A DNA stretch of 64,000 nucleotides from a virus, in the IMG/VR virus record IMGVR_UViG_3300042542_004852; one strand, given 5' to 3'. Of this stretch, positions 1,665 to 60,983 are shown piece after piece. The position numbers were made by a program, and so were the translations under genes. The notes under the pieces were generated by a model. That model searched no databases, was not told where the DNA came from, and worked only from the letters and a program-made list of their open reading frames with translations. Position 1 is the first letter of the stretch, and each line of letters starts with the position of its first letter.

Positions 1665-1910
1665 TTATTGAATTTGAAGCATTTTACTTTGTTTTTGCCT
1701 GAATGGAATATTAATTTCTAAAATGCCATCTTCAAGTTTCGCCGTAGCATTATCAACGTCAATATTTTCTGGCAATACCTGTGTAGCTTTTGAGCTTCCA
1801 AATTTTTCATTGAATGCTGAAATCAAAATATATCCTTCTTCAAATTCAATATTGATTTCGTTCTTCTTGTAACCTGGAGCTTTAATTAGTAGTGTGAAGT
1901 CTTCGTTCAT
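1665..1910 (-). CDS. Small heat-shock protein (Hsp20/alpha-crystallin domain)
   Basis: APGYKKNEINI...LPENIDVDNATAKLEDGILEINIP...LQIQ (AxLxDGxLxI motif and IxI tail). Confidence 0.9.
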   Translation of the reverse strand: MNEDFTLLIKAPGYKKNEINIEFEEGYILISAFNEKFGSSKATQVLPENIDVDNATAKLEDGILEINIPFRQKQSKMLQIQ

Positions 1911-2977: not shown

Positions 2978-2979
2978 AA

Positions 2980-3423: not shown

Positions 3424-3442
3424 ATTTATGTTTAATTATTGT

Positions 3443-42297: not shown

Positions 42298-43097
42298 TAT
42301 AAATATCCTATGTAATTGTTAACAATACTCAGTGAACTATCAGAGCTTGAGGAAAGCTGCTGAGAAATTTCCTGAATATTAGGAATAGTTAAATGAATCA
42401 TTTCACTATTATTATCTCTGCTTTTGACTGAAATATCAAATTGTTTTTGTTCTGCGCTAGTTAAAAAGAATTCGTGGTTTTCTAAAGTCATATTAGAAGC
42501 ATCAAAAGTGAGCGAAGCAGAGACGTTAACTGGCGGCAAAAATACCACCTCATCAACTTCTTTTGCGCTATCAAGAGAATAAATTCCTTGGCGATTAATT
42601 GAATACTCGAAAGAAAAACTTTTTACTCTATTGTTTGATGTGTTATCTCCAGAAACAGAGATTGACCTTGGGCTTGGAATAAAAAGACTTGGATGCTCTT
42701 GCGTTTTTAAAACTTCTAGCGATGGTTCTAATTTTCCATAAACAGTGATGCCGCAAGAGATTGAAGGAATCTCGCCAACCGTGCAGGAAATGCCATATTG
42801 GTTCAAGAACCCGCTTGTAAATCCATAAGATTTTCCGTTATAACTTAAACTGCCAGAAAAACTAGAGTCGCCAGTAAAAGCCAAAAGCGGGTCTTGGTAC
42901 AACATGCTGCGCTGTAAAGATATTTCGGCTTGGATTGGATTGTTGAGATTATAGCCATAAGTTGATCCTAGTGTTAAAGAATTTTCTAATGGGACACTGT
43001 AATTAATACTGATGCTCTCAACTCCAGAAAGTTGATAGCCATTAACAACAAAAACTTGATCGTATGGTTGAACTGAAAGTGATCGGTCTATGCTCAT
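42297..43097 (-). CDS. Tail-tube-like baseplate-proximal protein
   Basis: Directly after the TMP; GFLNQYGISCTVGEIPSIS aligns with tube GFITDYTLNAAVGDLPTVS. Confidence 0.6.
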   Translation of the reverse strand: MSIDRSLSVQPYDQVFVVNGYQLSGVESISINYSVPLENSLTLGSTYGYNLNNPIQAEISLQRSMLYQDPLLAFTGDSSFSGSLSYNGKSYGFTSGFLNQYGISCTVGEIPSISCGITVYGKLEPSLEVLKTQEHPSLFIPSPRSISVSGDNTSNNRVKSFSFEYSINRQGIYSLDSAKEVDEVVFLPPVNVSASLTFDASNMTLENHEFFLTSAEQKQFDISVKSRDNNSEMIHLTIPNIQEISQQLSSSSDSSLSIVNNYIGYL

Positions 43098-46000
43098 CGT
43101 GATTTTTCAAGCGATCCTCCTAGTCTTTTTTCTTGAGCGATAACATCTAACACAGCTTGGCGGATTTTCTTTTGAAGCTCTCTATCTCTTTCATTCATAT
43201 CCGCAGGGTTTTCTTCCTGTTGATCAGTGGATGAAACATTAACAACCACATTGCTCTGAGAAGAGTTTGAAGTTGTCTGAATCAGTTCGTCAAGTTTGGA
43301 AATTAAAGCTTGAGTCATTTCAGCAGAAGAGCTTTCGCTGCCAACTGATTGACCGTTGTTTAACTTATTAAGGTTTTGAACACCAAGGCGTTGAGTGGCG
43401 CGATTGTTGAGAACAAATTCGCCACCAGTAAGCATCGCTGGAACGTCGTCTTTGGTTCCAGAGCCACCAGAAATTAAACCGCCAGAAGCGCGTTTTATAT
43501 ATGGATTATAACGACCATCTGTTGAGTAAGGGACTATCTCCTGTTGTATATATGATGGTAATGGTAGAAGAGAATTGTCTGAGCCGCTGCCCTGAGCTTT
43601 CGGGCCTGAACTTTTATTGAAAAAACCTTTGAATTGAGAAAACAAATTGGCCAAACTAAATTTCTTCAAGAAAGAATTGTTAGTTTGTAAATTTGTGCTT
43701 TCTGTTATCGTAGGTTGTAGTGTTGACGACATTACTCCTTGAACTGACTGGCTTGCTATATTCCCACTCATTGCATTTTGCCTAGCGATAGCTAAATCAG
43801 AAAGCTGAGTTCCTGTTCCTTTAAAAATATTAGCTAATCCACCTTGACCACCTGCACCAGTGAACATGCCTTTTGCTCCAGCCATGAATTTTGCTCCAAA
43901 GCCAAAGGTTTTTCCACCAGCGGCAGCGGTTTTTGCACCAGAAGCAATAGCATTTTTTGCTCCAGACAGCATGGCACTACCAGCAAAATTAAGAGCAGTA
44001 GATGCAACTGCTGAAATGATTGCCATTTGTAATTGTTTTTTACGAGCTTTTTTATCTTTGGCAATTTGATCCAACAATTGAGAGTATTCTTTTTCTTTTT
44101 GTAATCCTTGTAAATAAACTCCAAAAGCCTCATCTTTTGACTGCTGAACTCTTTCAAACATTGGGCTGTTCTCTCTGCCGAAAGAAGAGAGTCGAGCGCT
44201 TTCTGGCTCCAAGCCAACGCTTGCGCCACTCATTCCAAAGCCGCCCATGTAGTCATATTGACCACCAGTAAAGCTTTGGGTTGCAAAAGTGAGAAGTTCG
44301 TTTTTGCCAGTGATTGCGCCTTGGCCATAGTCGCCAGGAGTAAAGAATCCACTACGGCCAGTTTGTGTTGGGAATGTTTCTGGATCAACTAAACCGCCAG
44401 TGGCGTAGCCGCGCATGTTGCCGCTGTTGATGGCATCAAGGAATCCTTTGCCGTATTTATTGACAGCAGATTTTTTCACAACATATTCGCCGCCCATGAG
44501 CATTGCTGGCACATCGTCTTTGGTTCCAGAGCCGCCTTTAATAAAACCGCCAGAAGCTTTGGTGGTTACACCGCCAGGGAAAGCTGATTTTAAAGCACTA
44601 AACCCAGTATTCGCCAAGCTTCCCAACCCACCAGTAACCATGTCAGCAAGGTTAGAAATGTTCTTGCGTGTGATTTCTTGGAAGAAACTTGTGGCAGCGT
44701 CAGTGAGCGCTGTTTTAAGGTCTTTCGCGCCACTGATTGCATCGTTCAATCCTTGAGCAAGATTAGAAGAGAACAAGTTCGGAATCTCTTCGCCAAGAGT
44801 TGTGCGATAGTTGTCAATGCGTTCTTGAATAGTGTCCAAGCCTTTTTCGAAGCCTCTTCCGCCGCTTCTTTGTTCTGCGGTTTGTTTATTTTTTAGATCA
44901 GCAAGCTCTTCAACTGTTGCTCCCTGCTCTTTAAGAGCTAAAAACTCTTTTAAATATTTTAATTCATATTCTAGTTCGCGGCGACGAGTGGCAGATTCAG
45001 CAGTGGCAAGTTCAAATCCTTTTTCGCGTAAAGCTGTTTGAGCAGCGATAGTGGCTAAATCTTGTTCTCCGCCCTGCTTTGGAGCTTTAGAAATAACGTC
45101 TTGCTTGATTAAATTAGAAGCAAGATCATTCGGGTTAGTGGATTGTAATGCTCCAAATTTAAGATCAGCAAGTTCTCTAGGAAGCGATCCAAAATAATCT
45201 CTAATACGCTGACTGAGCATGAGTGAAACATCTGACATCTCACCAATGCTTTGAGACAGTTCTTGTGTTGCTGTTTTTGCTTTTTCTGTCGCTACAGTAG
45301 CTCTATCATTAGCTAATGTTCCTTGTTGATTTAAATCAGTACCTTTTGCTGTAGATTTGTTATTTTCATCTTGAGCTTCGGTCATTTTTTCAGTAAGTTC
45401 TTTTCTTCGCTGTTCAATTTCAGCTAAACGTTTGGCGCTTTCAGGAGTTAATCCTGATGTTCCAGGCTGAGGCAAACTATCTAATTGATCTTGTAAATTT
45501 TTAATTGCTAAATCTGCTAGTGCTTTGTCTTGATCAGTAAAATTCCCGTTTTTTATTTCTTGCGCATTTTTCAACTCTGACATTATTTTTTCCTTGGCGA
45601 GTGCGGTCAAAATAATACTAGAAAATTTTTCAGCACTGCCAACAATAGTAACATCAAACATGTCTGCTGTTAATTTAGTTTGCGCAAAAGCTAAATCAGA
45701 AGCTTTTTTTTCTGCATCTTGTATGTTTTTAGCAATATCATTTAACGATGTTTGTCCAATAAATTGTAAAGCTCCAATCTGTTCCTTTGTATTTTCACCT
45801 GTTAGTGGCGAGGTCAGGGCCGATTGTTGTGCATTATAGATTTGATTGCGAATATCTCTTTTTTGATTAAAAGGTAAACTATCTGGTATTTCGCTTTGCA
45901 AGTTAGAAAGCTCGTCAGAAATAGTTTTTCTAAAATCAGTAATGACATCTTGTATTTCTCTATCTCTAGTAACAGAAACCCTGTCCTTTTGTTTGGAAAG

Positions 46001-49000
46001 TTTTGCCGATTCACTTAGGCCAATTAAACTTCTTTCAAATTTAGTATCTTCAATTTCTCTACGAGTTTTTAAAATTTCTTGATCAAGCCCAAAAGTTTTT
46101 TCTAAAGTTTTTACTTGTTTTTCTATAGCTTTAGTAAGTTTTTCTTCCGCAAGTGAGCGTTGATCAATGAGAGTTTTATTAGCAAAATCTAATTTTGCCT
46201 GAGCTTGTTTTAGTTTTAACTGTCTATCTAATTCAAGATTTGTTTTCTTATTTTGTTCGTATTCTTTCGCCGCTGCTTCAGGATCAATAAATGATATTAA
46301 TCCTTTTTCTTGTATTAATCTAACTAACTCTTCTGCGGAACCCTGTGATTTTGCAAGAAAATCCTGAACTTCCTTTAAGCCAGATAGCGTTTTTTCATCA
46401 ACTGCGCTACTGCCAATACCACTTGTCAATTTTTCAGATACGCTAGTGTTAATTTTTTCTAATTGAGCAGCAAGATTTTTAGCTTTTTCAGCTCCAGTGT
46501 CTAACTCAATTTCTTTTAAAGAATTCTGAAACTCTCCGAAACTTTTTGCAGTATTTGAAAGAGAAGAATCTAATTCCAAAAGAGTTTTATTTGAAAATTT
46601 AGAAAACGCGGTATCTAAATCAATTTTTAAAATGCTATCTCTAAGAGCGTTGTACTCAGAAGCTAACGATGCAACTAAAATTTCATTTTCTTTTAATCTA
46701 TTAATTACAGATTTAGTCTGTTCGCTTGATAATTTTTGAGCATCTGCGAAATCCTTTGCTCTTTTGATATTTTCTCCAATAATAACTGATTCTTTTAAGA
46801 ATATATTTAATCTATCTTGATTTTCCTGTGTAGATAAATCTATTTTTCTTGCTCCGCCTTTGGAAAGATTCCCTTGGATAAAAGCCTCTGTTTGTCCAGC
46901 TATGTTTTCTTTATTTATTCCTCTGGCAGCATATCCAGCATTGATAGACTGAATTACTTTTGTAATTTCATCCTCTGCCAAGGTATTGCCTGCGGCGTTT
47001 TCATAGGTTTTTCCTGCAAAAGAAACTTGATCCCTTAATCCAAGAGAAGTAATTTCTCTTCCTATTTCTGTCCAAGTTCTACTATTAAAACCTTTATTAG
47101 CTACATTTAGAGCCTCTTTACCAAAATCGGTAAGAGAAGAAGTGACTTCATTTACTGATTGATCAAGCCTGTCAAAAGCAACTGACATGTCTTTTTTGAA
47201 GAATCCTTTAACTCCTTCGCCAATAGTATTTGCAATATAAGCGGCAGTTAAAACTTGTCCAACAACAGGAATAGCTTTTGTAGTTGCTGCGCCAATTTTT
47301 GATAAACGACCACCTATGCCACTAATAGCACCAGCAATAGGCTTGGCTCCAAGTATTTTTTTGAATGGTGCGGATACTTTATCTCCTAAGCCTTTTAAAA
47401 TATCTTGACCACCTTTAAAGCTGGATAAAAAGAAATACATTTGAGACAATCCGCCAATAACCTGAGTCAAGCTTTGTCCAAATTTTGCAGCAGTTCCTCC
47501 AGCCTCTTCCAAACCAGTAGTTAAAAATGTCATAGCGCTTTGAGCAATAATTAATTTACCAGCTAAATCAGCAAAGCCCTCTTTCGCTTCTTTTGGAGCT
47601 TGTACAAGCTGATTTTGAGCAGCTTGAAAAGCTTTTAAACCAGCACCAGTCTGAGTATTTAATTTATTTTTATTAACTTGAATGCCTGTTACGAATTTTT
47701 CAAGTTCCTTAATCGCATCTTCTTGCGTGATTTTATTTTTAGCTAATTTTTTATTAATTTCATCAATTAAATTTGCAAAACCTGTAAGTTGTTGATTGAC
47801 TGATTTTGGTAAAGATGCTCCAAAAGCTTTTCGATCAATTGGCGCAGGAGCAAAATTCGGCACAAATCCATTTGCCGCGCCATAAAGCTTTGGATTCACG
47901 CCTTCCTTGCGTGCGCGAGCGATGCCTTGGAAACCGCCAGCAGGCTCGTCTCTTCGATTGGCCACCATTAACCCCATTGGGTTCATGGATGATTTTAAAG
48001 CAGCGCTTTGATCAACATAGATTTGTGAATCTGAAAGACCAGCGCTTTTTTCGCGAGCAATAGCTTGCTGTAAAGCAGCAGCAGCAAAGTTTGGAACGTA
48101 ACCAGCGGAGGCATTAAACTTTTGTATGCCACCAGCTTTTTTTAGTTTTTCAATACTTTCTAGTGAAACTTTTCCTTCGAAGTTTCTTGCAATTGCAAAA
48201 TTAAAAAGTCCTTTTGATGCGCTTGTGCTCTGTAAAGTTCTCAAAACATCTTTTTCACTGCGAATTTGAGAAGTTGGGCCTGGCGCTTTAGTTGGTTTTA
48301 TTAATTTTTCAACGTTTTTTTGACTTTGTTCTTTATAAATTTTAGATGCAAAACTTTCTCTAGTAGAATCATTATCGGCGTATTTAGCCTCAACAAAATC
48401 AACAGTATTAGGAATTCCAAAAAATTTATTAAATTTTGAGTTGGCTACTCCTTTAAAGTCAAAAAGAGCATTTGAATTTCTCTCTGATTGAGCTTTTAAT
48501 AGTTCTTCGTCTTGAAGAGCGGAGCTAATAGCACTTTCAAAAATAGAACCAACCAAACTTGGAACAGAGCCTTTATTAGATAATTGAGTAGCCGCTATTG
48601 GAGATAAAGGTTTACCAATAAGATCATTCGAGTAGTCAGAAGCATCTTGCAAAGCTAAATCGGTATATTTTTTTTCTAAGCTTTGAGAGCTGTATTTTTG
48701 ATTAAATTTTTGCAGCTTACTTGTATTTTTCAAACTCTCAATATCTTGAATTCCATAAATATCAGCTAAGTAGCTGACTCTTTCGCCGTCTCTAGGTTTA
48801 TAAGAAATTAATTGTTTTTTTCTAGCGCCTCCTAAATCATTAACAAGCATTGCGTACTTGTCGCCAGTCTTTTCAACCCCTAAATCTTCTGAAGCTAAGA
48901 CTTTTTCTTTTGAGCGCAATATTTCAAATCTCTTCTTTGATGTAGCTGGGTCTGCTAATTGAACGCTTTTTTGCAAAGCTCTAATAAATTTAAAATTATT

Positions 49001-51331
49001 TTTTTCAATTTTTAAAGACCCGCTCAATTGAGCGGCACTTCTAACATCTCCTCCTGTTAAGCCTTGAATTTGTCTTACTTTTCTGCGGTTTTCTATCTCT
49101 TCATTAGAGACGCCTAAATAAGTTATTTTACCTCCAGAACGCAATGATGCATTAAGTATTGATTCAAATTTTTTACTTAATCCTGTTTCGGTTTTGCTAA
49201 GTCCAGCAGCAGATAAAATTGTAAAAGAACTAGCTCTTCTAACATCTTCAAGAGAAGAAATAAAAGTGCCTAAACTTTTGGCATAGGTGCTTTTACCTGC
49301 TCCAGAAGGAGCAACTAAAACATCTTTTTTCTTGGTTGATGCTAAAACATTTTCAAGAATTAGTTTTTTATTTTCTCCTAAAAAACGATCTGAATCATAA
49401 ATATAATTGCCAGCAAAATTAGGAACAAATCCACCAGCCGCACTAATCTTCTTTGCTCCCGCTGGCAAGCCTATGCTCTTCACCATGTCTTGATTAAAGA
49501 TGGCAGAACCGCCGCCAGCATAATTAGGAACAATGTACTCGCTTGTATTGGCAATCATTGTGCCGCGTTTGCCGCCGCCAAACGCAAAGTTTGGAATAGA
49601 AACAACTTTGGAACTTGGCGAGGCTCCACCTACGCCACGACGAACATCTGAAGCTTCTTGCGCTGGCAAGTATCCGCCAGCAGCTTTGCTTTTGCGCTGT
49701 AATCCTTCAGATGTTGCGCGGTATCCTTGAGCATAAACTGGTGAAGCGATGCCTCCAGCCACACCCTGAATAGTTTGCATAGCAGCGGCCTGTTGATTCA
49801 AAAGCCCTAAGAATTTTAACGCTTGTGCATTTTGTCCGCCCTGAGTACTTAAAATAGCGTTTGCAATACCTTGATTTCTTATCAGTGTTTGAACAATAGA
49901 TTCTTGCACCAGCTTTTGATCAGCAGCAGCTTTTCCAATACCAAAAAACGCTTTTAAGCTTTGAAGGCCAAATTTAGCTAAATCAAGAGACAGCTTACCA
50001 ATAATTGCCAAGAAAATTCCAAGACCAGGACCGCTTAATACACCACCAATACCTTTAACAAAACCCTTGGCAAAATTAGAACCAAGATCGTCTCCTTGTA
50101 AGAGACTGTTCGCGCCCTCTAAGAAAGAATTAATTCCATCTAAAAGACCGTTAAGATTATCAGTTAATCCTAATTCTCCTAATATGCTTCCTAATTGCTT
50201 ACCAGTATTAGCGACCTTATTAAGAATAGCATCAAGAGATTGATTTAATTTTTCATTAGCAACATAAGCTTCATTTGTGGCTCCTGCTGATTTTTTAGTC
50301 GCTTCAGCAGCAATGCTATTTTTTTTAGTCAAATCACCAACAAGGGCAATTAATTGGTTAATTTGGAAAGTTCCAGCTATGTCTTTAAAAATTCCACTTT
50401 GAGTAAGTTTGCTAAATCCTTGTACGTCATTAGCAAGATTTTGTAAAATCTTCGATGCTGGAAGAATTTCACCTGATAAATCTTGAACTATAATACCAAC
50501 CCCTTTTAATTTTTCTAATTTATCCACTTCTCCCAATCGGGTAAAAATAGTTTTAAGGGAGTTTCCAATTACAGCACCACCGCGAGATGTGTCAGCTTGT
50601 AAAGCAGTGACAATACCAGCCAACTCATCAAATGTGACTCCAGCCTGTTGTGCCGCAGCACCAGTTCTTTCAAAAGCTTGTATCAAGTCAGCAGAAGAAA
50701 CTTTGAAGGCTTGGTCAACCGCAGCAAGTTTATTTAAAATTCGAGAAGCTGAAAGACCTTCTCTTGCAAATGCGCTAACTGCCGCACTCAAACCTTCAAC
50801 TGATTTTGTTGTTTCTAAACCAGTAGTTCTAGTTAATATAAGGGCATCTTTTGTTCTGCTCAAAGTATCCTCTAATTTCAAACCTTGTCGAGAAAACTCT
50901 AGAGCAGCTTTGGAAACTTCACTAAAACTTTGACCAGTCTCTTTTGCAATATTAAAAAGACCTTGGCTAAGCTCTTTTGTTTTGCCAGTGAATTGATCAC
51001 CAACAACAGAGATTGCAGTAATAGCCTTCTCCACTTCAATTGTGGAGCTAACAAGACTTTTAAAAGCGTTTGTTACAGCGTTAACAACACCAACAGAAGC
51101 TCCGAAAGCAAGAACGCGAGCATTTGCAGCGTCGAGAGACTTTGTGAACTCATCTGCTTGGCCAGTTAAACGGCCAAGGGGCTGAGAAAGAGAGCTGAAT
51201 GCTTTTGCGCCACTTGCCCCGCCCAAATTAAATTTAACTTTATTAACAGCGCTTTGACAAACACCTTGTAAATAGGTAGCTGCTTGATCTGCGTTTTGAA
51301 ACTGTGCGTTAAGAGGGACATTTATAGCCAT
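43094..51331 (-). CDS. Tail tape measure protein (2745 aa) with inserted enzymatic cargo
   Basis: TP901-type N-terminal region (AKETGQSF..FSRQG...RGGAVIGNSLKTIFTR), hydrophobic segments, coiled coils, and two ASGG..GGSGTKDDVPAML.GGE.V motifs. Confidence 0.92.
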   Translation of the reverse strand: MAINVPLNAQFQNADQAATYLQGVCQSAVNKVKFNLGGASGAKAFSSLSQPLGRLTGQADEFTKSLDAANARVLAFGASVGVVNAVTNAFKSLVSSTIEVEKAITAISVVGDQFTGKTKELSQGLFNIAKETGQSFSEVSKAALEFSRQGLKLEDTLSRTKDALILTRTTGLETTKSVEGLSAAVSAFAREGLSASRILNKLAAVDQAFKVSSADLIQAFERTGAAAQQAGVTFDELAGIVTALQADTSRGGAVIGNSLKTIFTRLGEVDKLEKLKGVGIIVQDLSGEILPASKILQNLANDVQGFSKLTQSGIFKDIAGTFQINQLIALVGDLTKKNSIAAEATKKSAGATNEAYVANEKLNQSLDAILNKVANTGKQLGSILGELGLTDNLNGLLDGINSFLEGANSLLQGDDLGSNFAKGFVKGIGGVLSGPGLGIFLAIIGKLSLDLAKFGLQSLKAFFGIGKAAADQKLVQESIVQTLIRNQGIANAILSTQGGQNAQALKFLGLLNQQAAAMQTIQGVAGGIASPVYAQGYRATSEGLQRKSKAAGGYLPAQEASDVRRGVGGASPSSKVVSIPNFAFGGGKRGTMIANTSEYIVPNYAGGGSAIFNQDMVKSIGLPAGAKKISAAGGFVPNFAGNYIYDSDRFLGENKKLILENVLASTKKKDVLVAPSGAGKSTYAKSLGTFISSLEDVRRASSFTILSAAGLSKTETGLSKKFESILNASLRSGGKITYLGVSNEEIENRRKVRQIQGLTGGDVRSAAQLSGSLKIEKNNFKFIRALQKSVQLADPATSKKRFEILRSKEKVLASEDLGVEKTGDKYAMLVNDLGGARKKQLISYKPRDGERVSYLADIYGIQDIESLKNTSKLQKFNQKYSSQSLEKKYTDLALQDASDYSNDLIGKPLSPIAATQLSNKGSVPSLVGSIFESAISSALQDEELLKAQSERNSNALFDFKGVANSKFNKFFGIPNTVDFVEAKYADNDSTRESFASKIYKEQSQKNVEKLIKPTKAPGPTSQIRSEKDVLRTLQSTSASKGLFNFAIARNFEGKVSLESIEKLKKAGGIQKFNASAGYVPNFAAAALQQAIAREKSAGLSDSQIYVDQSAALKSSMNPMGLMVANRRDEPAGGFQGIARARKEGVNPKLYGAANGFVPNFAPAPIDRKAFGASLPKSVNQQLTGFANLIDEINKKLAKNKITQEDAIKELEKFVTGIQVNKNKLNTQTGAGLKAFQAAQNQLVQAPKEAKEGFADLAGKLIIAQSAMTFLTTGLEEAGGTAAKFGQSLTQVIGGLSQMYFFLSSFKGGQDILKGLGDKVSAPFKKILGAKPIAGAISGIGGRLSKIGAATTKAIPVVGQVLTAAYIANTIGEGVKGFFKKDMSVAFDRLDQSVNEVTSSLTDFGKEALNVANKGFNSRTWTEIGREITSLGLRDQVSFAGKTYENAAGNTLAEDEITKVIQSINAGYAARGINKENIAGQTEAFIQGNLSKGGARKIDLSTQENQDRLNIFLKESVIIGENIKRAKDFADAQKLSSEQTKSVINRLKENEILVASLASEYNALRDSILKIDLDTAFSKFSNKTLLELDSSLSNTAKSFGEFQNSLKEIELDTGAEKAKNLAAQLEKINTSVSEKLTSGIGSSAVDEKTLSGLKEVQDFLAKSQGSAEELVRLIQEKGLISFIDPEAAAKEYEQNKKTNLELDRQLKLKQAQAKLDFANKTLIDQRSLAEEKLTKAIEKQVKTLEKTFGLDQEILKTRREIEDTKFERSLIGLSESAKLSKQKDRVSVTRDREIQDVITDFRKTISDELSNLQSEIPDSLPFNQKRDIRNQIYNAQQSALTSPLTGENTKEQIGALQFIGQTSLNDIAKNIQDAEKKASDLAFAQTKLTADMFDVTIVGSAEKFSSIILTALAKEKIMSELKNAQEIKNGNFTDQDKALADLAIKNLQDQLDSLPQPGTSGLTPESAKRLAEIEQRRKELTEKMTEAQDENNKSTAKGTDLNQQGTLANDRATVATEKAKTATQELSQSIGEMSDVSLMLSQRIRDYFGSLPRELADLKFGALQSTNPNDLASNLIKQDVISKAPKQGGEQDLATIAAQTALREKGFELATAESATRRRELEYELKYLKEFLALKEQGATVEELADLKNKQTAEQRSGGRGFEKGLDTIQERIDNYRTTLGEEIPNLFSSNLAQGLNDAISGAKDLKTALTDAATSFFQEITRKNISNLADMVTGGLGSLANTGFSALKSAFPGGVTTKASGGFIKGGSGTKDDVPAMLMGGEYVVKKSAVNKYGKGFLDAINSGNMRGYATGGLVDPETFPTQTGRSGFFTPGDYGQGAITGKNELLTFATQSFTGGQYDYMGGFGMSGASVGLEPESARLSSFGRENSPMFERVQQSKDEAFGVYLQGLQKEKEYSQLLDQIAKDKKARKKQLQMAIISAVASTALNFAGSAMLSGAKNAIASGAKTAAAGGKTFGFGAKFMAGAKGMFTGAGGQGGLANIFKGTGTQLSDLAIARQNAMSGNIASQSVQGVMSSTLQPTITESTNLQTNNSFLKKFSLANLFSQFKGFFNKSSGPKAQGSGSDNSLLPLPSYIQQEIVPYSTDGRYNPYIKRASGGLISGGSGTKDDVPAMLTGGEFVLNNRATQRLGVQNLNKLNNGQSVGSESSSAEMTQALISKLDELIQTTSNSSQSNVVVNVSSTDQQEENPADMNERDRELQKKIRQAVLDVIAQEKRLGGSLEKSR

Positions 51332-51352
51332 ACCTTATTCCTTAAAAGGTTA

Positions 51353-52333
51353 TTACACCTTTTGTCCCATAACTTCCATCATTTGTTCCATATTTAATTG
51401 TCCATTATTTTTCTTCAACAGTTCCGAAAGCGAAACTTTCTTAGCTTCTGGATCAACAAAATCTAAATCTTCTTTTTTAGAGTTAAAGAGAGCAGTGGCA
51501 GAATTATCTTTCGCAGAGTTTGAGAGCTTTGTTTTGTTTCGGCTGCTTTCGGCGAAATCTATGAGGGCTTTTGGGTCTTTGCGAATAGAATCTGGAATCT
51601 TGTCAACGTTTTGGAAAATGTTTAAAAACATTCTGCCATAAGCAATAACTTTGAGTTGATACAGCGAAAACTTAATCAAAGGCTTGGCGAAAAAATCCCA
51701 AGGCTTCTCACAGTGGCTTAAATACAAGCTAAAACAGTCTTGTAAAACAGCATGCTGAATATTCTCGTCAGAGAATTTGTTCATGATATTGTAGTAAGAG
51801 TCCATGAGTGACGAAAGCTCACTGTTATCTAGTTCGCCAAAGTCTTCATCTGAAAAAAGCAGTTTTGTAGTTTGCTCGTCGCTGTATAGAAGATTTCTTA
51901 AAAAATCTTCGTTGGATCGGTTGTTCGCATACTCTGTGGCAGTCTTGCCTACGAGTTGTTTTTTTTGACTTTTTAATTCAAAAAGTTTAAATTTTTCTTC
52001 ATCAATTAATTTTTGATGACCTTCTTTTTGAGAAGGCAGCATCAGCTTGCTCTTTGTCTTCTCTAGGTTTTGCACGAAGCTTTCTAGCTCTAAGATTTTA
52101 TTTTCATCATCTTTGCTCCAAGTGCCATCTCTGTCTAGTCGCGCTAATACATCTTTTTCTTCTTGGATGCCTTTTGCAATGGCTCGATTTTTATGTTGTT
52201 CGAAATTATTATTTAAGAACTCTTGATCCTTTAATGAAAAATGGCGCAAAAACACGGTTTGATCTTTAAAATCAAACCGTGTGTATCCATCAAAAATCTC
52301 GTTAACAATCTCTATGTAAAGATTGTCATTCAA
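51353..52333 (-). CDS. Putative tail assembly chaperone (second gene)
   Basis: Directly upstream of the TMP; helical; TTG start overlaps the previous stop. Confidence 0.55.
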   Translation of the reverse strand: MNDNLYIEIVNEIFDGYTRFDFKDQTVFLRHFSLKDQEFLNNNFEQHKNRAIAKGIQEEKDVLARLDRDGTWSKDDENKILELESFVQNLEKTKSKLMLPSQKEGHQKLIDEEKFKLFELKSQKKQLVGKTATEYANNRSNEDFLRNLLYSDEQTTKLLFSDEDFGELDNSELSSLMDSYYNIMNKFSDENIQHAVLQDCFSLYLSHCEKPWDFFAKPLIKFSLYQLKVIAYGRMFLNIFQNVDKIPDSIRKDPKALIDFAESSRNKTKLSNSAKDNSATALFNSKKEDLDFVDPEAKKVSLSELLKKNNGQLNMEQMMEVMGQKV

Positions 52334-53154
52334 GACTTAGCTTTTTTCTTTTTTGGCGAATCTTCTTTTGGCAACTCTTCTTTTGGGGACTCTTCTTTCT
52401 GGGGAGTTTCCGAATCTCCTTTGTCTTCAAACAAGCCATCGAAATCTTCTTTATTGGAAGTTTGGTTATAAAACCAAAAAGCTGCAACATTGGAAATCTT
52501 TCGGGCGATCTCAAAATAAAGAGGGTCTTCTTGCTCTTCTTTTTGATAGTAGTCTTCGAGACGATCTTCAAAGTCTTCGCCACTAAAATATGGCTTTGGC
52601 TTGTCTTGATTCTCTTTTTGAATATAAGTGAGATTGATGATGTACCAAATAAGAAGACGATTTTGAGCCTTCATGTCGGCAGTGTGATCAAAGAGAGACT
52701 GATAAGCCATTTCAGTCTTGACAATTTGATCGCGAACCTGAGCCATCTCAAGAGAGACAGCTTCAGTTTTCTTTTTGCGATTATCGTCAGTCTTGTTGAC
52801 GGTTTCGTTTTCAGTATATTCTCTCTGTAGTTCCAAGAGCTTTTGATAGTTCTGGTAAAGAGTTTTTGCTTCTGTTTCGCTCATCAAGCCGCCAGTGTCA
52901 GAATACTTTTTGACAAGCATTGCTTTGGTAAGAATGCCTTTTTTAATGCAGCGGGACATTTCCACGCTATATTCCAAATCAGCTTCTTCGATTTGACGGC
53001 GCGAAGGCTTCTTGAGAAACACCTTGATGGGAGATTTCTCGCTTACTTTTTTAGTTACCTTCACTTCATTGCCTTGTTCGTCGTTTGAGACGGACTCAAC
53101 AGGTTTCTCGACTGTTTCATAAACAGTAAAATTGTAGATGTCTTTGAATTCCAT
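52330..53154 (-). CDS. Putative tail assembly chaperone (first gene)
   Basis: Position upstream of the TMP, charged helical sequence, AGGA SD. Confidence 0.5.
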   Translation of the reverse strand: MEFKDIYNFTVYETVEKPVESVSNDEQGNEVKVTKKVSEKSPIKVFLKKPSRRQIEEADLEYSVEMSRCIKKGILTKAMLVKKYSDTGGLMSETEAKTLYQNYQKLLELQREYTENETVNKTDDNRKKKTEAVSLEMAQVRDQIVKTEMAYQSLFDHTADMKAQNRLLIWYIINLTYIQKENQDKPKPYFSGEDFEDRLEDYYQKEEQEDPLYFEIARKISNVAAFWFYNQTSNKEDFDGLFEDKGDSETPQKEESPKEELPKEDSPKKKKAKS

Positions 53155-53508: not shown

Positions 53509-53961
53509 ATGGCTGGATTTTTATCAGAAAACCAAAAAACTAACATCAAATCAATCATTGATCAAATCCACGATACTTTTGCTCGCGAGATCACTGTATT
53601 CAAAATTGGTCAAAGAACTGTAATCTCTTCTTCTGCCAATTACAACGCTCTTTATCGCCAACAGTCTTCTAATACAGAAACAACAGAAGTATCACAGACT
53701 TTTCAAGCGCGAATTAAATATGTTGAGATGAGCGAAACATTCTTGCAAGAATCTCAATCGAACTCATCTGGCCAAGATAAAATTATTCTTCCTGCGGGAA
53801 CTGTTAAAATTAAAGTAAATTTAGAAGGCTACGAATATGTTCGCGAAGCTAAGAGAGTTGAATTGGATGGGCGGCGCTTTTCCATCAAAAGCGATGGCAA
53901 ACCTCTTGGCATGTTTGGGCCGCAGTATTATGAATTTATTTTAATTCCAATGGACGAATAA
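53509..53961 (+). CDS. Putative head-closure (stopper) protein
   Basis: Beta-rich 150 aa (FQARIKY...RVELDGRRF...YYEFIL), first gene of the neck/tube block. Confidence 0.5.
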   Translation: MAGFLSENQKTNIKSIIDQIHDTFAREITVFKIGQRTVISSSANYNALYRQQSSNTETTEVSQTFQARIKYVEMSETFLQESQSNSSGQDKIILPAGTVKIKVNLEGYEYVREAKRVELDGRRFSIKSDGKPLGMFGPQYYEFILIPMDE

Positions 53962-54584
53962 TGGCAAAAAAAGTTTCTTTAAAATCTTTCGCAAAAGAAT
54001 TACAAAAATTTGTTGTTCGCGAAACTGTAAAGCAAAATCGCAAAGCTTTCCAGCAAAGAATCATAGTTGCTTTTGAAAAAATCAAAAAAGAAATGCTTGA
54101 AGAGTTTTTGGCGCATCCTGTTTCTGTTGAAATTCTTGGAGGACCAAACGCTCAAAATACCAGTGAAACTTTGGGAGGTTACGGCAATTTATTTTCTTTT
54201 ATTGGTTTTAATGAGGGAGACTCGCCGCTTCAGTCAGTGATTGACTTGATTGAATCAAGCAAGATAGAAGATGGTCGAGATACTGAATCTGGGTTTTTAA
54301 TGAAGATTTTTTTACCTTCAAAAGAGGAAGTTTTTTCTGTTACTCCTATGCCTTGGGCAAGTGGTCGCTCTTGGGCAGAAGGCATAGAGCGAGGAATATC
54401 TGGCTTTGGCTCTTATTTAAATACAGACTCAAACTTAAGTCGTTCTAGCGCAGGCGTTCAAGCGCAAAGTGTAATTAGAAAAGGTAAGTTTAAAAATACT
54501 GCATACATTTCTGCGCTATTAAGTAAATACGCCAAAAAATTCCAGCAAATCGACAAAAGCGTCGTACTCACGGGCATTCTATGA
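53961..54584 (+). CDS. Putative neck / tail-completion protein
   Basis: Basic protein between the stopper and terminator genes; GNLFSFIGF and W..GIE.G motifs. Confidence 0.45.
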   Translation: MAKKVSLKSFAKELQKFVVRETVKQNRKAFQQRIIVAFEKIKKEMLEEFLAHPVSVEILGGPNAQNTSETLGGYGNLFSFIGFNEGDSPLQSVIDLIESSKIEDGRDTESGFLMKIFLPSKEEVFSVTPMPWASGRSWAEGIERGISGFGSYLNTDSNLSRSSAGVQAQSVIRKGKFKNTAYISALLSKYAKKFQQIDKSVVLTGIL

Positions 54585-55453
54585 TTCCTCAATTTCAACA
54601 TAAACTATCATCGTCTTTTCTCTTGTGGTTTGATAATTATTTATTAACCAAAGGTCAAGCATACACCAACACAACTGGTCGTTTTTATTATTATCAAGAT
54701 GAAAGAGTTCCTAACACATACAAAGTTTTTGGCAGTCCTTATAAACAATGGGTTTCCGACTATTCTATTACTGGCGCAACAATTCCTTCTGGAGTTTTTA
54801 TTAACGGGTCATTTTCTGGCCGCGCTACTGGTTCAAACAATAGCACAAGCTCAAGAATTCTTGACTTTGACAATGGCCGCGCCTTAATTAGTGGCGCTGC
54901 AACTGGAGCAGTTGTCACAGGAGCTTTCGCCACTAAAGATTTCAGTGTTTACTATAGCAATGAAACAGAGGAAGACTTGTTGATTGAAAATAAATTCATT
55001 CCGCAAAGTAAAATAGGCACAAATCTAAGCCCCACATACGTTCAACCATACGATCAAGTTGTTCCCGCAATTTATATCTGCAACACTGCGTTCGAGAATA
55101 AGCCTTTTGCATTTGGCGGCATGGATCAAACAACTACCAATTTAAATGCAGTAGTAATCGCCGAAAATCCTTATCAACTTGATGGAGTTTTATCTATTTT
55201 TGCTGATTCAAAAAATGAGAGTATTGTTGATGTTCCTTTTGACAGTTATCCCTTTACTGAATATGGAGATTTAAAAAGCGGATATTACAACTATCAGAAT
55301 TTAAAAACCCAATATCAAAACAGCAATAAATATTTTATTGAAAGAGTTAAAACATCCAAAATGAATGACAAACCAAGAAAGTCATTAGTTAATGATTTGT
55401 ATGTTGGATTTATTGATTTTGACGTTTCTATTATGAGGTATCCTAGAATATAG
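54581..55453 (+). CDS. Putative tail terminator protein
   Basis: Immediately upstream of the tail tube; VPAIYI...PFAFGG...VIAEN..QLD...GFIDFDV. Confidence 0.5.
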   Translation: MIPQFQHKLSSSFLLWFDNYLLTKGQAYTNTTGRFYYYQDERVPNTYKVFGSPYKQWVSDYSITGATIPSGVFINGSFSGRATGSNNSTSSRILDFDNGRALISGAATGAVVTGAFATKDFSVYYSNETEEDLLIENKFIPQSKIGTNLSPTYVQPYDQVVPAIYICNTAFENKPFAFGGMDQTTTNLNAVVIAENPYQLDGVLSIFADSKNESIVDVPFDSYPFTEYGDLKSGYYNYQNLKTQYQNSNKYFIERVKTSKMNDKPRKSLVNDLYVGFIDFDVSIMRYPRI

Positions 55454-55499
55454 TTCTCATTCATCTTATTTAAATGTAAATAAAGCAAACTTTCTATTT

Positions 55500-56666
55500 A
55501 TGGCAAGAAATCGCGTAATCTATCAATCTGAAGGGCTGTTTGTAAGCAGCGGACTCTCATCTCAAACCTCTGGACAACACAAGCAATTAAAGCGTGTACA
55601 GAGCGCTAACTATAGCTTTGAAATCACTCGTCAAGACGTAAACCAATTTGGGCAGCTTGCTCGTATTGACGCTCTCGTTCTACAGTCTCCGACTGTGAGC
55701 TTGGACCTCTCATACTACCTCGCTGATGGATTCAATGAATCCGCTCTTGGTTTCTATATGCGAGGCAATGGTGCTGGTAATAAAGGCCCAGCATCCGAAG
55801 CTAACTTTGCCTCTGGACAAATGGTTAGCTCTTCTGGCGTTAACTTTTATATCGTGACTGATAGCGAAGGCATTGACCTTAACTACGATACTGGCAGCGC
55901 CAACGCTCTTGTGGGCAAAGGTGTTATTGGTATTGGCAATGGCTTCATCACCGACTATACTCTTAATGCTGCTGTTGGCGACCTACCAACAGTTTCAGTC
56001 TCCGTTGAAGGTCTTGGTTTTTGTGCTGCTACTTATGCTACAGGCGTAAGCGGAACATATACTGGCACTGGTTTTGCTGGTCCAGCCATTAATCCAGAAA
56101 ACGGAACAAAGCTTCTCTCCACTGGCGTAAACGGTTGGGTAATGCTACCTAATCCTTCAACTGGCGATGGCGTAACCGCTCTCCGCCCTGGTGACATTAC
56201 ACTAGATTTCGGCGGATTTACTGGAACAGGTTTCGGTACTCCAGCTTCTATTCTTGAAGGTGCAAATTCAATCAACATTCAAAGCGTGAGTATTTCTCTT
56301 CCAATGAGCCGCACTCCAATTGAGCGTCTTGGTAGCCGTTTCGCGTTCGCTCGCGTGACTGACTTCCCTGTAACCGCTACAATGACAGTGAATGCTCTTG
56401 TGAACGAAACACAAGCTCGTAACCTTGCTGACATGATTGATGACGGAGCCGAAAGAGACATCACTCTTACCATCAAAGCTCCTGGCACAAATACTCCTGC
56501 TGTGCAATACGCTTTTAAAGCTGCTCGTCTTGATAGCGAAAGCTACTCTTCTGACATTGGCTCTAACAAGAGTGTTGATCTTAGCTTCTCCACTCAAATT
56601 GGTGGTCCTAATGATACTGTTCACGGTATCTACTTCTCAGGTTCTTCCGACAGAGCGTTCGTCTAA
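55500..56666 (+). CDS. Major tail tube protein
   Basis: 388 aa, beta-rich, high-expression codon bias, followed by a strong terminator; internal duplication of the tube motif. Confidence 0.75.
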   Translation: MARNRVIYQSEGLFVSSGLSSQTSGQHKQLKRVQSANYSFEITRQDVNQFGQLARIDALVLQSPTVSLDLSYYLADGFNESALGFYMRGNGAGNKGPASEANFASGQMVSSSGVNFYIVTDSEGIDLNYDTGSANALVGKGVIGIGNGFITDYTLNAAVGDLPTVSVSVEGLGFCAATYATGVSGTYTGTGFAGPAINPENGTKLLSTGVNGWVMLPNPSTGDGVTALRPGDITLDFGGFTGTGFGTPASILEGANSINIQSVSISLPMSRTPIERLGSRFAFARVTDFPVTATMTVNALVNETQARNLADMIDDGAERDITLTIKAPGTNTPAVQYAFKAARLDSESYSSDIGSNKSVDLSFSTQIGGPNDTVHGIYFSGSSDRAFV

Positions 56667-57677: not shown

Positions 57678-58790
57678 TTAGACAATCACACCGAGGAGAG
57701 CACGGTTGTCGAGAACCATACGACCTTCTTCGAGAGAACCGAAGTAGCCAATCTTGTTCTGACGGATGCTGTATTGGTCGTCAGCGATGAGAGTGAACTC
57801 AGAACCGCTTTCGCTGTCGATGGCAGTGGCGCGGATGAGAGACTCACGGCCACGGTCAAGACCAACGGCGATTTCTTGAGTAGCTGGGTTGAAGCTACCG
57901 CCATAAACAGTGTCGAAGATGGTGTTGTACTTTTGATTTTCGCCGAACTCATTGATTACCATGAGGGAAACACCATAGAACTCTGGAAGACCAGCGGAGT
58001 TGTATAGAGCCATACGCATTTCATCAGGAGCAGCGATACCGTTTGAGCGGTAGTCGGAACCGCCTAGAGCAGCAGCGCCAGCGCCCTTGGTGTTGATGGG
58101 GTTGTAAGCCATTGAGCGAATAGAGTTTTCCAACTCAGGGCTGATGATGAGATCAGTGATGCCACGGGCATTAGCAGCGCCTTCTGGAGTACCCTTAGAG
58201 AAGGAAGTGTTGATGCGGCGAGCACGGGTGATGAGGTTGTTGAAGTCTTGTAGCAAGAAGCTGCCAGCAGTGGTAGCATCAATGATGTGGGAAAGACCAT
58301 TGGTGCTAGCATTGGCAAGAGCAGTCATAAGAAGGTTTGCGCTGGTGCGCTCCTGCTTAAGAAGGATTTCTTGAGCCATGCGAGTGAAGGTTTTGCTAAC
58401 TACGTCCATGCGGCTTTTGGCTGCATAGCGACGATCAAAGCTGAGAGCAGAGTCGAGAGTGTAGGTAGCAATCTTCATTTCAGAAACAGTCGGAAGGACT
58501 TGGTTCTGTGGAAGACCACCAGCAACGCTTTGGCTGTAAACAGTGATATAGTCCTCGTCGGAAATATCATAGTAAAGGTCAAGCGGGATGGAAGGATTGT
58601 CGTCAGCGTTGAACTGAAGCTGAGTAAATAGATTACTTAGAGTCGGAGCGTTGTTGATGACTTCGGCGAGAACAGGGCCGATGAACTCGGCAAGAGCTAC
58701 TTGAGCTTCGTAAGCGACCTGACGGTTGCGTGAAGCCATAGCCTTGATTAGTTCGATTTGTTCTGGAGTTCTTTTGAGAGAGATTTTCAT
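57678..58790 (-). CDS. Major capsid protein (HK97 fold inferred)
   Basis: 370 aa, strongest codon bias in the window, AAGGAGG SD, follows scaffold and decoration genes, ends at a terminator. Confidence 0.8.
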   Translation of the reverse strand: MKISLKRTPEQIELIKAMASRNRQVAYEAQVALAEFIGPVLAEVINNAPTLSNLFTQLQFNADDNPSIPLDLYYDISDEDYITVYSQSVAGGLPQNQVLPTVSEMKIATYTLDSALSFDRRYAAKSRMDVVSKTFTRMAQEILLKQERTSANLLMTALANASTNGLSHIIDATTAGSFLLQDFNNLITRARRINTSFSKGTPEGAANARGITDLIISPELENSIRSMAYNPINTKGAGAAALGGSDYRSNGIAAPDEMRMALYNSAGLPEFYGVSLMVINEFGENQKYNTIFDTVYGGSFNPATQEIAVGLDRGRESLIRATAIDSESGSEFTLIADDQYSIRQNKIGYFGSLEEGRMVLDNRALLGVIV

Positions 58791-58817
58791 ATTAAATTGT
58801 TTCCTCCTTGGTTAAGA

Positions 58818-59435
58818 TTACATGCGAAGACCGATCACGGCGAAGCCGCCAGCGAATTGATCTGTGGTGGATTGGGAAGTGCGTGAGCCAGTGCCAAGGA
58901 CAAGACCAAGCTTGCCAGCGTCGGAGTGGAGACAGCCAGTGACTTTACCAGCATTAGCAGAAAGCTTGAAGCCGCTGCCAACAGTGAGAGTGCCATCAAT
59001 AGCATTAGCGCCAACAGAGAACATACCGCGAGTGGCAACTGGAACAGCTTGTCCAGGAAGCACGCACATGAGTTCTTCAGCCTTTTGGCGATAGTAAAGA
59101 AGCTTTTCACCGTTTTCGTCAAACTTTGCAGTCTGGCGAAGAGTGATGCCAAGGCAGTTGGTGGTGTCGCCAGAGGCGGCAGGAGTCACCTTGAGGTTGA
59201 CGGATGGGTAGCTGTTAGCGCCAACAAACGGATAGTCGGTTTTGCCGAGGTAGCTGTCGGTAGCGTAGCTTACGGGGTCTAGGTCAAAGTTTCCAGCGGA
59301 AACCTTAACAAAAACACCAGCATCACCACTGCCAACGCCAGTTACGGATTCGTTGACGGCAGCATCTGCTAGTGCGTACAGATTGATGACATCTTGGTCA
59401 TCATATTGACGGAATGGGAGTAGTCTGGTAGCCAT
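58818..59435 (-). CDS. Capsid decoration / cement protein
   Basis: Between scaffold and MCP; LGITL...PGQAVPVATRG beta-tulip-like pattern; same codon bias as the MCP. Confidence 0.65.
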   Translation of the reverse strand: MATRLLPFRQYDDQDVINLYALADAAVNESVTGVGSGDAGVFVKVSAGNFDLDPVSYATDSYLGKTDYPFVGANSYPSVNLKVTPAASGDTTNCLGITLRQTAKFDENGEKLLYYRQKAEELMCVLPGQAVPVATRGMFSVGANAIDGTLTVGSGFKLSANAGKVTGCLHSDAGKLGLVLGTGSRTSQSTTDQFAGGFAVIGLRM

Positions 59436-59449
59436 ATTAGTTAGTTAAA

Positions 59450-60982
59450 TTAGGAAATTAAAATATTTTCGCGAGAAAATGCAGAGGCAAATTTTTCTTT
59501 AAGACTCTTATTTTCTTGGGAAGTTTCTCCGTTGTTATTCGGGATGGTTTTTTCAGCAGAAGCCTTGGCTTTTTCAAGTGCTTCTTCTGCGAGTTCAGCT
59601 TCGGTCTTTGTGGAAGCAGTGGATTGGTTGAGTTCGCTTAGGCGCTTTTCAACTTCAGCAGTGATCTTTGCTTCTGTTTCTTCAGCCAAACGACCAAGGT
59701 GTTCCTTGTTCTTATGCTTAAGCACAACAGAAAGCTTATCTTGATAAGATGCGAAAGCTTCGTCAGAGGCTTCAATAGCTTGAAGCTCAGAAGCGATAAC
59801 TTTACGATCTTCGTCTTCAAGAGAGTAAAGATTGTCAATTTGCTCCATGCGAGCATTAAAGCGAGCCAAGGCTTTTTCAGCTTCTTGAGCGGCTTCAATT
59901 TCTTGGAGCTTGACTTTTGTGTCAGACAAGTCTTTTTGAAGAGTTTCGACAGAAGCCAAGAGTTCTTTGGCTTTGGTTTCGGAAGCTTCTTTCTCAGTTT
60001 TAGCAGAGCGATACTCTTCGTCTTTTTGACGAATTGCATCAGCAAATGTGCTAGTCATACTGGCGATGGCTTCTTCCGAGATTTTCTTCTCTGTGAGAGA
60101 AGCTTTGAGTTCTGAAAGGAATGATTCTAAATCCATAGATTTTTTAATGTTTACATCTTTAAGATTAAATTGGGAAATATTTTTTGTATTCATTGCAAAT
60201 ACTTTTTTATCTCGCGGGTCTTTGAATGATACGTTTTCTTCTGGGGTGATGCCATTATCAAGCAGCAAGCCTTTGACATTAGCGGCTGGATTAGCGGTGA
60301 AACCAATGCCAAGAGGATAAACAGAACCCTTTACCAAGCGATAAATTTTGGAGCCATCTTCCATTTTACCATTGCCACCATAAGCGCGAAGCTTGCCTTT
60401 GAGTTCGTCAATATGCTTTGGGTTCGAAATGATTTCAGCCTCTTTTAAATTTGTGCTTCCAACAGCCAAAACATATTCATTAAATCCAAGCTCCCAACTT
60501 GCAGAAACTGTGTTGAAAAGATTGCTGCTTTCACTGGTTGATTTGTAAATCAAATCAGTAAATTTAGGATCAACAAGCTTATAGATTACTGCGCCCAAAG
60601 CTAGATTAATTAAGCCATTTGTTTCAATAACTTCCTGATTATTTAGGGGAACATTTTCGCCCCAAGAATTGAAACCAGCCGAAACAATATGGCCCACAAT
60701 TTGTTTCTTATTGTGCTCAATGTTTGTTGGTTTGTGGATGAAGTATGGCGCGATTTGAACAGCAGTTTGAGAGTCAATGCCGTCATCGTTGCGATTGAAT
60801 TGGTTCACGACAGCAGCGTCAAAAGCTACTCCCATGAGGTCAATGTTTTTGCCCAAGTCAATGCTTTGACTAGGCAACAGACTCTTAAGATTCTCTAGCG
60901 AAGCTGTGGAAATAAAAGAGTTTTCGCCAATTTTACACTGGCGAATAGAAACATCAAATTCTGTTTTATATTTAAAATCCAT
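59450..60982 (-). CDS. Prohead protease fused to a coiled-coil scaffold
   Basis: NRNDD...NIEH...IVGHI...SASWE...GIGFTANPAA protease-like half followed by an E/K/A-rich coiled coil. Confidence 0.75.
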   Translation of the reverse strand: MDFKYKTEFDVSIRQCKIGENSFISTASLENLKSLLPSQSIDLGKNIDLMGVAFDAAVVNQFNRNDDGIDSQTAVQIAPYFIHKPTNIEHNKKQIVGHIVSAGFNSWGENVPLNNQEVIETNGLINLALGAVIYKLVDPKFTDLIYKSTSESSNLFNTVSASWELGFNEYVLAVGSTNLKEAEIISNPKHIDELKGKLRAYGGNGKMEDGSKIYRLVKGSVYPLGIGFTANPAANVKGLLLDNGITPEENVSFKDPRDKKVFAMNTKNISQFNLKDVNIKKSMDLESFLSELKASLTEKKISEEAIASMTSTFADAIRQKDEEYRSAKTEKEASETKAKELLASVETLQKDLSDTKVKLQEIEAAQEAEKALARFNARMEQIDNLYSLEDEDRKVIASELQAIEASDEAFASYQDKLSVVLKHKNKEHLGRLAEETEAKITAEVEKRLSELNQSTASTKTEAELAEEALEKAKASAEKTIPNNNGETSQENKSLKEKFASAFSRENILIS

Positions 60983-60983
60983 A

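Follow-up and report, generated by a model that had tools for sequence, protein, structure and literature searches.

A conserved peptide delimits modules that appear to be exchanged among related phage tape measure proteins

The virus record IMGVR_UViG_3300042542_004852 from IMG/VR, of which a stretch of 64,000 nucleotides was analyzed in full (the window), contains on its minus strand a single open frame of 8,238 bases (43094..51331) that encodes a tape measure protein (TMP) of 2,745 residues (P0001). Residues ~545-1161 of this protein form an accessory zone of globular modules carried on one chain, between an N-terminal core with an adjoining hydrophobic segment and a long coiled-coil. Comparison of protein and DNA sequences strongly supports the view that related phages gain, lose, reorder, and replace these modules, with homology breaking at a short junction peptide. 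The middle of the ruler protein serves as a rack for exchangeable modules in a large uncultured phage family (one search using residues 560-1170 as the query returned 865 TMP homologues). A single strictly conserved peptide fences the modules, no module family tested belongs to a known protein family, and the peptide provides a simple handle for finding further modules by sequence.

A junction peptide is conserved among related tape measure proteins and marks sites of module exchange

Three full copies of the junction peptide were located in the translation of P0001: AAGGFVPNFA (motif 1; residues 631-640, 49412..49441), ASAGYVPNFA (motif 2; residues 1074-1083, 48083..48112), and AANGFVPNFA (motif 3; residues 1152-1161, 47849..47878), all encoded, like every other feature of this gene given below, on the minus strand. 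The partial copies AAGGYLP (49664-49684), SIPNFA (49583-49600), and IVPNYA (49517-49534) precede motif 1 and together with it lie in an N-side bracket zone (residues 545-640, 49412..49699), which is predicted to form a small beta-sheet (predicted local distance difference test, pLDDT, ~76-85) and whose protein sequence is 96% identical to that of the nearest related phage record. The zone then continues with module A, module B, and module C, and every module is closed by a junction peptide except at the joint between A and B, which has been lost. An earlier reading of the window made from its letters alone (the sequence-only reading) had listed these three full and three partial motifs, along with the P-loop, lid, and VGSIFE, LFDFKG, and DFVEAK segments described below, and each of them was recovered in place on the minus strand.

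Counts of motifs, segments, and architectures were made on 120 related TMPs. In this set the pattern G[FYL][VILM]PN[FY][AS] occurs in 419 copies, and shuffling the same residues 20 times produced 0 copies each time. The consensus derived from these copies is A-[AS]-x-G-[FY]-[IV]-P-N-[FY]-A, of which G, P, and N are invariant, and a six-frame translation of the window placed the junction motif inside the TMP open reading frame (ORF) only.

The segments between motifs fall into 32 linkage clusters, or into at least 48 sequence families when defined by BLAST, and are combined in 81 architectures, which bears out the earlier suggestion that homologues would carry different domains between their PNFA motifs. 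Module A is found in 79 of the proteins and module B in 34, and both module C and the N-side bracket are kept in all 120. Individual proteins illustrate the range of arrangements: P0005 lacks module A, P0013 has an additional 212-residue module ahead of A, L001 has the order B-C-A-C, and in L006 and L007 module A is followed directly by C. Analysis of where alignments end within the zone (n = 3,833) revealed that 62% of the ends lie within 5 residues of a motif end, versus 6% for random positions. A replacement could also be followed at the nucleotide level in the nearest virus record, G001 (whose TMP is P0084), which has 25% of the window's 31-mers in common. The DNA of G001 is 88.7% identical over 49413-52500 and breaks off at 49413, at the end of motif 1 and one base short of its last codon position; identity resumes inside motif 2 and, at 93% over 47851-48105, ends with motif 3. 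Between 49413 and 48105 there is no alignment, and G001 carries three unrelated modules where this phage carries A and B.

These results sustain one half of the proposal in the sequence-only reading that the motifs are joints for interchangeable units, in that exchange does occur at the motifs, and not the other half, in which the motifs are recombination sites at the DNA level. If the motif were conserved as a DNA recombination site with the peptide being incidental, the breaks in G001 homology at motif edges would be accommodated, as would two motif copies (family D2) that have a 20-nucleotide stretch in common with one mismatch. We nevertheless regard this as highly improbable, as the three full copies in P0001 have 19-25 of 30 bases in common and their Pro, Asn, Val, and Ala codons differ synonymously, yet the peptide is invariant across the 419 copies, which argues that selection acts on the peptide and not on a DNA site. 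Exchange can instead be explained by homologous recombination within the long conserved flanks, namely the N-side bracket and module C, which are 89-93% identical.

When P0001 and eight relatives were scanned, no tested module family matched Pfam. Cell-wall hydrolase domains of some relatives (lysozyme, GH19, SLT, VanY, and NlpC/P60) were considered as candidate motif-fenced modules and ruled out, as they are situated far downstream at residues ~1860-3700.

Family matches place the carrier among TP901-type tape measure proteins

The N-terminal TMP core domain of P0001 (residues 85-404, 50120..51079) is matched by TIGR01760 (residues 85-404, E 3e-33, 115.3 bits, cut-off 28.8) and by PF10145 (residues 129-320, E 3.7e-27, 95.9 bits, cut-off 33.2). 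Eight PHROG TMP families match within the first ~520 residues (best E 6.7e-55), and a database entry identical to P0001 is annotated as a TP901-family TMP. The identification of the protein as a TMP in the sequence-only reading is borne out by these matches, on the strength of which we take P0001 to be a genuine TP901-type TMP. On the N-side of the module zone is a glycine-rich hydrophobic segment (residues 427-454, 49970..50053; Kyte-Doolittle 19-residue peak 1.74), and a second, weaker hydrophobic segment on the same scale lies on the C-side (residues 1353-1371), with coiled-coil-type matches (SMC, dynactin) at profile positions ~1200-1780. Among the GenBank phage records of INPHARED, no phage with the module zone was found, and matches to Bacillus, Lactococcus, and other phages were confined to the N-terminal TMP core.

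The C-terminal quarter of P0001 contains two copies of a further motif, ASGG[FL]I.GGSGTKDDVPAML.GGE[YF]V, whose opening A-S-G-G-aromatic-I is also that of the junction motif. The first copy, ASGGFIKGGSGTKDDVPAMLMGGEYVV (residues 2259-2285, 44477..44557), matches phrog_13338 and, by profile, a part of the mycobacteriophage Douge TMP that has no resolved structure (8zdo_S, E 2.3e-14); the second, ASGGLISGGSGTKDDVPAMLTGGEFVL (residues 2615-2641, 43409..43489), was located in the translation.

The stretch between motifs 1 and 2 comprises two modules with a decayed joint

Motifs 1 and 2 are separated by exactly 433 residues (TMP residues 641-1073). In P0003, P0004, and P0066, module A is followed by a full GG[FY]IPNFA joint, FELLRSAGGFIPNFA, with which the segment RFEILRSKEKVLA of P0001 (residues 801-813, 48893..48931) aligns as a decayed counterpart. 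On this alignment, we interpret the 433-residue stretch as two modules, A and B, between which this phage has only the remnant of a joint. The sequence-only reading had described the stretch as a kinase and nuclease cassette, and this single cassette gives way to two independent modules.

The stretch had also been described as richer in AT than its flank, which is numerically right: the GC content of the insert is 0.328, compared with 0.381 for the whole gene, 0.372 for the window, and 0.50 for the motif zones. The contrast arises because the motif zones are rich in Gly and Ala, and the GC content at third codon positions is 0.18 in the insert versus 0.185 in the coiled-coil part of the TMP gene, so the composition of the insert does not show it to be foreign.

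The stretch between motifs 2 and 3 is a third module, C (residues 1084-1151, 47879..48082). Its DNA is 93% identical to that of G001, it occurs in 120 of 120 related TMPs, and it is predicted to fold as a helix, a hairpin, and a helix (pLDDT 60-79). The N-side bracket and module C could not be shown to be homologous: BLAST aligned the motif alone, and hhalign gave a probability of 13.5% over 8 columns. Comparison of this region (window 47849-48112) with relatives such as P0066 and P0105 distinguished a long form, present here, that ends RDEPAGGFQG...GFVPNFA, and a short form in which the motif directly follows RDEP (RDEPDGKIPNF). The GGFQG of this phage may be a decayed inner joint.

Module A is a predicted P-loop kinase-fold domain

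Module A (residues 641-800, 48932..49411) was modelled with AlphaFold2 using a 49-row alignment (pLDDT ~90), and the model was searched against all structure representatives with VIA-align. This revealed structural matches to P-loop kinases, of which the highest-scoring was the Neisseria zeta toxin 6epg_B (Z 8.5, root-mean-square deviation 4.1, 147 aligned residues, model residues 97-272), in an alignment that takes in the N-terminal YIYDSD strand. Further matches were adenylate kinase (7.7; 7owe_E 7.7), the Clostridium polynucleotide kinase 4gp6_A (6.8), 1ukz_A (6.5), AvrRxo1 (6.4), and PezT (6.2), and Foldseek returned the same kinase families weakly, with E values of 5e-3 to 4e-2. The P-loop VLVAPSGAGKSTYAK (49277-49321) contains the Walker A pattern GxxGxGK[ST] as APSGAGKST, and the lid ITYLGVSNEEIENRRKVR (49073-49126) contains an arginine lid of the RxxxR type, NRRKVR, whose arginines lie on a predicted helix at residues 199-212 of the model. 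In a set of 101 non-identical copies with a median identity of 41%, the Walker A residues G677, G679, and K680 are conserved at 100% and T682 at 99%, the lid residues R749, R750, and R753 at 96%, 99%, and 100%, respectively, and D646, D648, D762, and R764 are likewise conserved at 95% or more. This pattern of conservation fits an active nucleotide-dependent enzyme. The model and its structural matches indicate that module A is a P-loop kinase-fold domain, in agreement with the earlier proposal of a kinase after the first motif.

Module A does not belong to a named sequence family in the collections searched: Pfam, NCBIfam, and PDB sequence searches gave generic P-loop matches alone, and PADLOC gave nothing specific for the insert. 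Its sole Pfam match was AAA_30 (E 0.018-0.09), the zeta toxin family model PF06414 was unmatched, and look-alikes by ESM features included Zeta_toxin clusters at 0.76, which is the noise level. Module A thus has the fold class, Walker A motif, and arginine lid of the zeta, PezT, and AvrRxo1 toxin kinases and of adenylate and polynucleotide kinases, but differs from these in its size of ~150 residues, in an invariant YDSD strand before the P-loop, and in having no family-level sequence match.

An exhaustive profile-free search identified free-standing homologues of module A of 150-195 residues (P0132, P0141-P0144, and P0152). These begin 1-3 residues past the position where the motif ends in the TMPs and stop where the next motif would start, which indicates that the motif is a separate linker element and not part of the fold. 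The corresponding genes are found on marine and other metagenomic contigs within same-strand runs of genes for 50-120 residues, a layout that looks like a phage early region. Upstream of one such gene on a TARA marine contig (L009:5959-6003), the in-frame codons before the start read NGQIPCYNIL-M. The faint likeness of this peptide to the remains of a G[FY][IV]PN[FY]A joint would fit a gene copied from a TMP, but could be due to chance.

The distribution of modules bears on the possibility that they serve the virion itself, as lumen fillers, DNA gates, assembly aids, or tail-length modifiers, with the P-loop module being an assembly NTPase. The zone is situated in a structural protein, and the retention of module C and the N-side bracket in every one of the 120 TMPs means that at least these two elements look structural. 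As an explanation of the modules we nonetheless consider a virion role improbable, given that A and B are dispensable, being present in 79 and 34 of the 120 proteins, that both are replaced by unrelated modules in the close relative G001, and that A is also a free gene far from structural genes. Such turnover of A and B is typical of conflict genes and not of assembly parts.

Module B has a conserved E/D/K signature and no recognized fold

Module B (residues 814-1073, 48113..48892) was predicted to be an alpha/beta domain (AlphaFold2, pLDDT 76) with invariant E932, D958, and K983, and contains the segments VGSIFE (48536-48553), LFDFKG (48449-48466), and DFVEAK (48383-48400). In 50 copies with a median identity of 30%, G921, G928, F931, E932, D958, K983, and K997 are conserved at 98-100%. 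These residues match the E...D...(D/E)xK signature, and the residue two positions before K983 is E or D. The predicted order of elements, a helix (with E932), a short strand (D958), a strand (E981-x-K983), and a helix, is compatible with the alpha-beta-beta-beta-alpha-beta core of PD-(D/E)xK nucleases.

Five fold searches with a dedicated model of module B returned neither a nuclease nor any other clear fold (Foldseek against the PDB, E >0.2; VIA-wide, best Z 5.5, to helical hairpins; pdb_via, best Z 4.3; ESM atlas, TM <0.3; BFVD, not significant). Searches of Pfam, the PDB, and PADLOC gave no match for module B, and leads by ESM features to Tox-REase-7 and MunI clusters, at 0.77, were at noise level. 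The E..D..ExK pattern on which the sequence-only reading had based its nuclease is therefore real and strongly conserved, while the nuclease fold was not recovered, and we judge the assignment of module B to the PD-(D/E)xK nucleases to be doubtful. The structural check proposed there for the insert, by AlphaFold and Foldseek, accordingly yielded a kinase fold for A, with weak Foldseek scores, and no nuclease for B.

Proposed delivery of the modules and role of the junction peptide

Cryo-electron microscopy has shown the TMP to be a trimer in the tail lumen, and structural snapshots have led to the proposal that it exits before the DNA and forms a channel spanning the envelope (PMC13033339). 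On balance, the best explanation of our results appears to be that the modules carried by the TMP act in the host, with the junction peptide most likely being a cut site. The modules would be packed in the virion together with the TMP and, as the TMP fills the tail lumen and exits ahead of the DNA, would reach the host envelope or cytoplasm before phage gene expression. There, module A may transfer phosphate from ATP to a host target, whether a small molecule, a nucleotide, or the end of a nucleic acid; a role in host takeover or counter-defence would fit the occurrence of its free-standing copies among arrays of tiny, early-looking genes.

We infer that one common partner reads the junction peptide as a signal for processing or docking. 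Motifs 2 and 3 were modelled by AlphaFold2 with pLDDT <50, as expected if they are short linear motifs recognized by a partner. A complex prediction for a trimer of the segment running from motif 2 through module C to motif 3 scored 0.00, which, having been obtained without controls, has no bearing either way. In the least secure step of the proposal, the chain would be cut at the junction peptide by a protease, or would cleave itself after tail assembly, so releasing the modules; taken separately, cutting at the peptide is a tentative suggestion that we would not be surprised to see fail. The narrower idea that the peptide is a dedicated release signal, either a self-cleaving site (for example through asparagine cyclisation at PN|F, triggered by enclosure within the tail) or a substrate of one protease, is rather unlikely. 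If it were true, the TMP would work like a cartridge that holds ready-made proteins in order and discharges them into the host before the DNA enters, forming a plug-and-play delivery platform common to hundreds to thousands of uncultured aquatic phages, and the dozens of uncharacterised modules would be a reservoir of host-takeover and counter-defence activities.

Several points weigh against delivery with processing. Family searches recognized no protease in the window or the TMP. Three folded copies of modules of 17-30 kDa placed abreast would exceed a lumen of ~4 nm and would have to be staggered or unfolded. Since the loss of the joint between A and B is tolerated, cutting at each joint cannot be essential. 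The fold matches of module A are middling (Z 8.5; Foldseek E 5e-3 at best), and as module B and the other tested modules have no Pfam match, enzyme cargo is shown for A alone.

Some of these points would be met by tethered display without cutting, in which the motif is a structural joint, for example a short strand returning the chain to the trimer axis or a docking element for the tube or a chaperone. The flanking hydrophobic segments would enter the host membrane after ejection, and the modules would act without being released from the TMP channel. Hydrophobic segments do lie on both sides of the zone (residues 427-454 and 1353-1371), the motif-like copies of the bracket are predicted to contribute strands to a small sheet (pLDDT 76-85), and a channel through the envelope, formed by TMPs, has been proposed (PMC13033339). 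Both the tolerated loss of the A|B joint and the failure to recognize a protease in the TMP or window are also in keeping with this arrangement. The strict conservation of seven residues in 419 copies beside unrelated modules, however, is more readily explained if a single partner recognizes the peptide than if it is a passive linker. Motifs 2 and 3 are disordered in the model, and module A appears, from its sequence homologues, to exist also as a free-standing protein without a tether. We consider tethered display a less probable account of the zone than the delivery account given above. Delivery, if it occurs, would give phages a general route for acting on the host before transcription starts. 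The modules would then also be rich ground for finding new enzymes and factors that counter defences, and the arrangement would offer a natural template for packing cargo into phage tails.

Comparison with known systems

That phages inject a few proteins along with their DNA is known, and a cell-wall enzyme is part of some TMPs; TMPs with embedded muralytic motifs include that of mycobacteriophage TM4. In the literature searched, no paper was found that contains the junction motif or describes motif-delimited TMP modules. The present analysis adds the division of the cassette into two modules with a decayed joint, the nucleotide-level swap in a close relative, the free-standing genes for the kinase module, and the negative result for a nuclease fold.

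The polyvalent proteins of phages and conjugative elements are packaged in the head or transferred by conjugation, contain a zincin-like peptidase domain and known enzyme families, and were described without mention of TMPs (PMC5512222). Like the TMPs studied here, they string several unrelated domains, in their case of effector type, into one large chain in highly variable architectures. Polyvalent proteins are delivered with the invading DNA, and their processing into units has been proposed (PMC5512222); for the TMP modules, we infer delivery. The two differ in that the carrier here is a TMP, the units are bounded by a 10-residue peptide, and the modules have no Pfam family; several unrelated modules are present, with an enzyme-like fold in module A only. 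A processing peptidase of the polyvalent type (MPTase) was sought, and no peptidase family matched P0001 or eight relatives apart from the far-downstream cell-wall hydrolases.

The TMP of phage T5, pb2, is cut after R1127 during tail assembly, between a hydrophobic stretch and an enzyme domain, and both products, pb2* and pb2C, stay in the tail (PMC10038345). In the T5 genome, the cut site reads NSFVPR|AEGGMM, which has F-V-P and A-x-G-G alone in common with the junction motif, a weak likeness, and BLAST comparison of the C-terminal regions was not significant. By analogy, T5 is a precedent for cutting a TMP beside an enzyme domain, and not evidence for a cut at the junction motif. The T5 protein is cut once and carries one cell-wall enzyme, at its C-terminus, whereas the modules described here are many, exchangeable, located in the N-terminal third, and include a kinase fold.

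Sle1 of actinobacterial contractile injection systems is similar in being a TMP-like platform inside a tail-like tube with a functional domain that is variable among relatives and exchangeable, as described in the abstract of the report (PMC13277306). It differs in belonging to a bacterial nanomachine and in having one C-terminal functional domain, and that abstract mentions no repeated junction peptide (PMC13277306).

Neighbouring genes and the phage

Two ORFs downstream of the TMP gene matched Phage_min_tail (39.8 bits, cut-off 39) and, below the cut-off, Phage_tube_2 (E 1.7e-5), and on these matches they resemble a distal and a minor tail protein. Neither a protease nor a clear chaperone was identified among the neighbouring genes. 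The window also codes for DnaE, DnaB, ribonucleotide reductase, and a ClpB-like ATPase, a gene set indicating that the phage is a large siphophage of the lytic type. The ATPase is a ClpB/ClpC-like double AAA+ unfoldase of 795 residues (window 24892-27279, plus strand; AAA_2 E 1.1e-59, Clp_N, ClpB_D2-small) encoded beside DnaE (22327-24882). That it might handle bulky virion proteins such as the TMP is pure speculation.

Neither Pfam nor PHROG matched the ORFs presumed to encode the capsid, portal, and terminase (370, 510, and 655 residues; window 57678-63456, minus strand), which suggests that this phage lineage stands very far from described phages in its head module. Between the tail and head genes, the minus-strand run is broken by four plus-strand genes without a family match (150, 207, 290, and 388 residues; window 53509-56666), and elsewhere in the window (11048-12400, plus strand) a HAD phosphatase is fused to a nucleotidyltransferase. 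The sole match to the N-side bracket in the species-genome collection, at 70% identity, was on a 6.5-kb contig of a Flavobacterium sp. metagenome-assembled genome (NZ_JBJXDQ010000157.1; L017:3985-4266), which is probably a phage contig binned with that genome and provides a weak hint as to the host.

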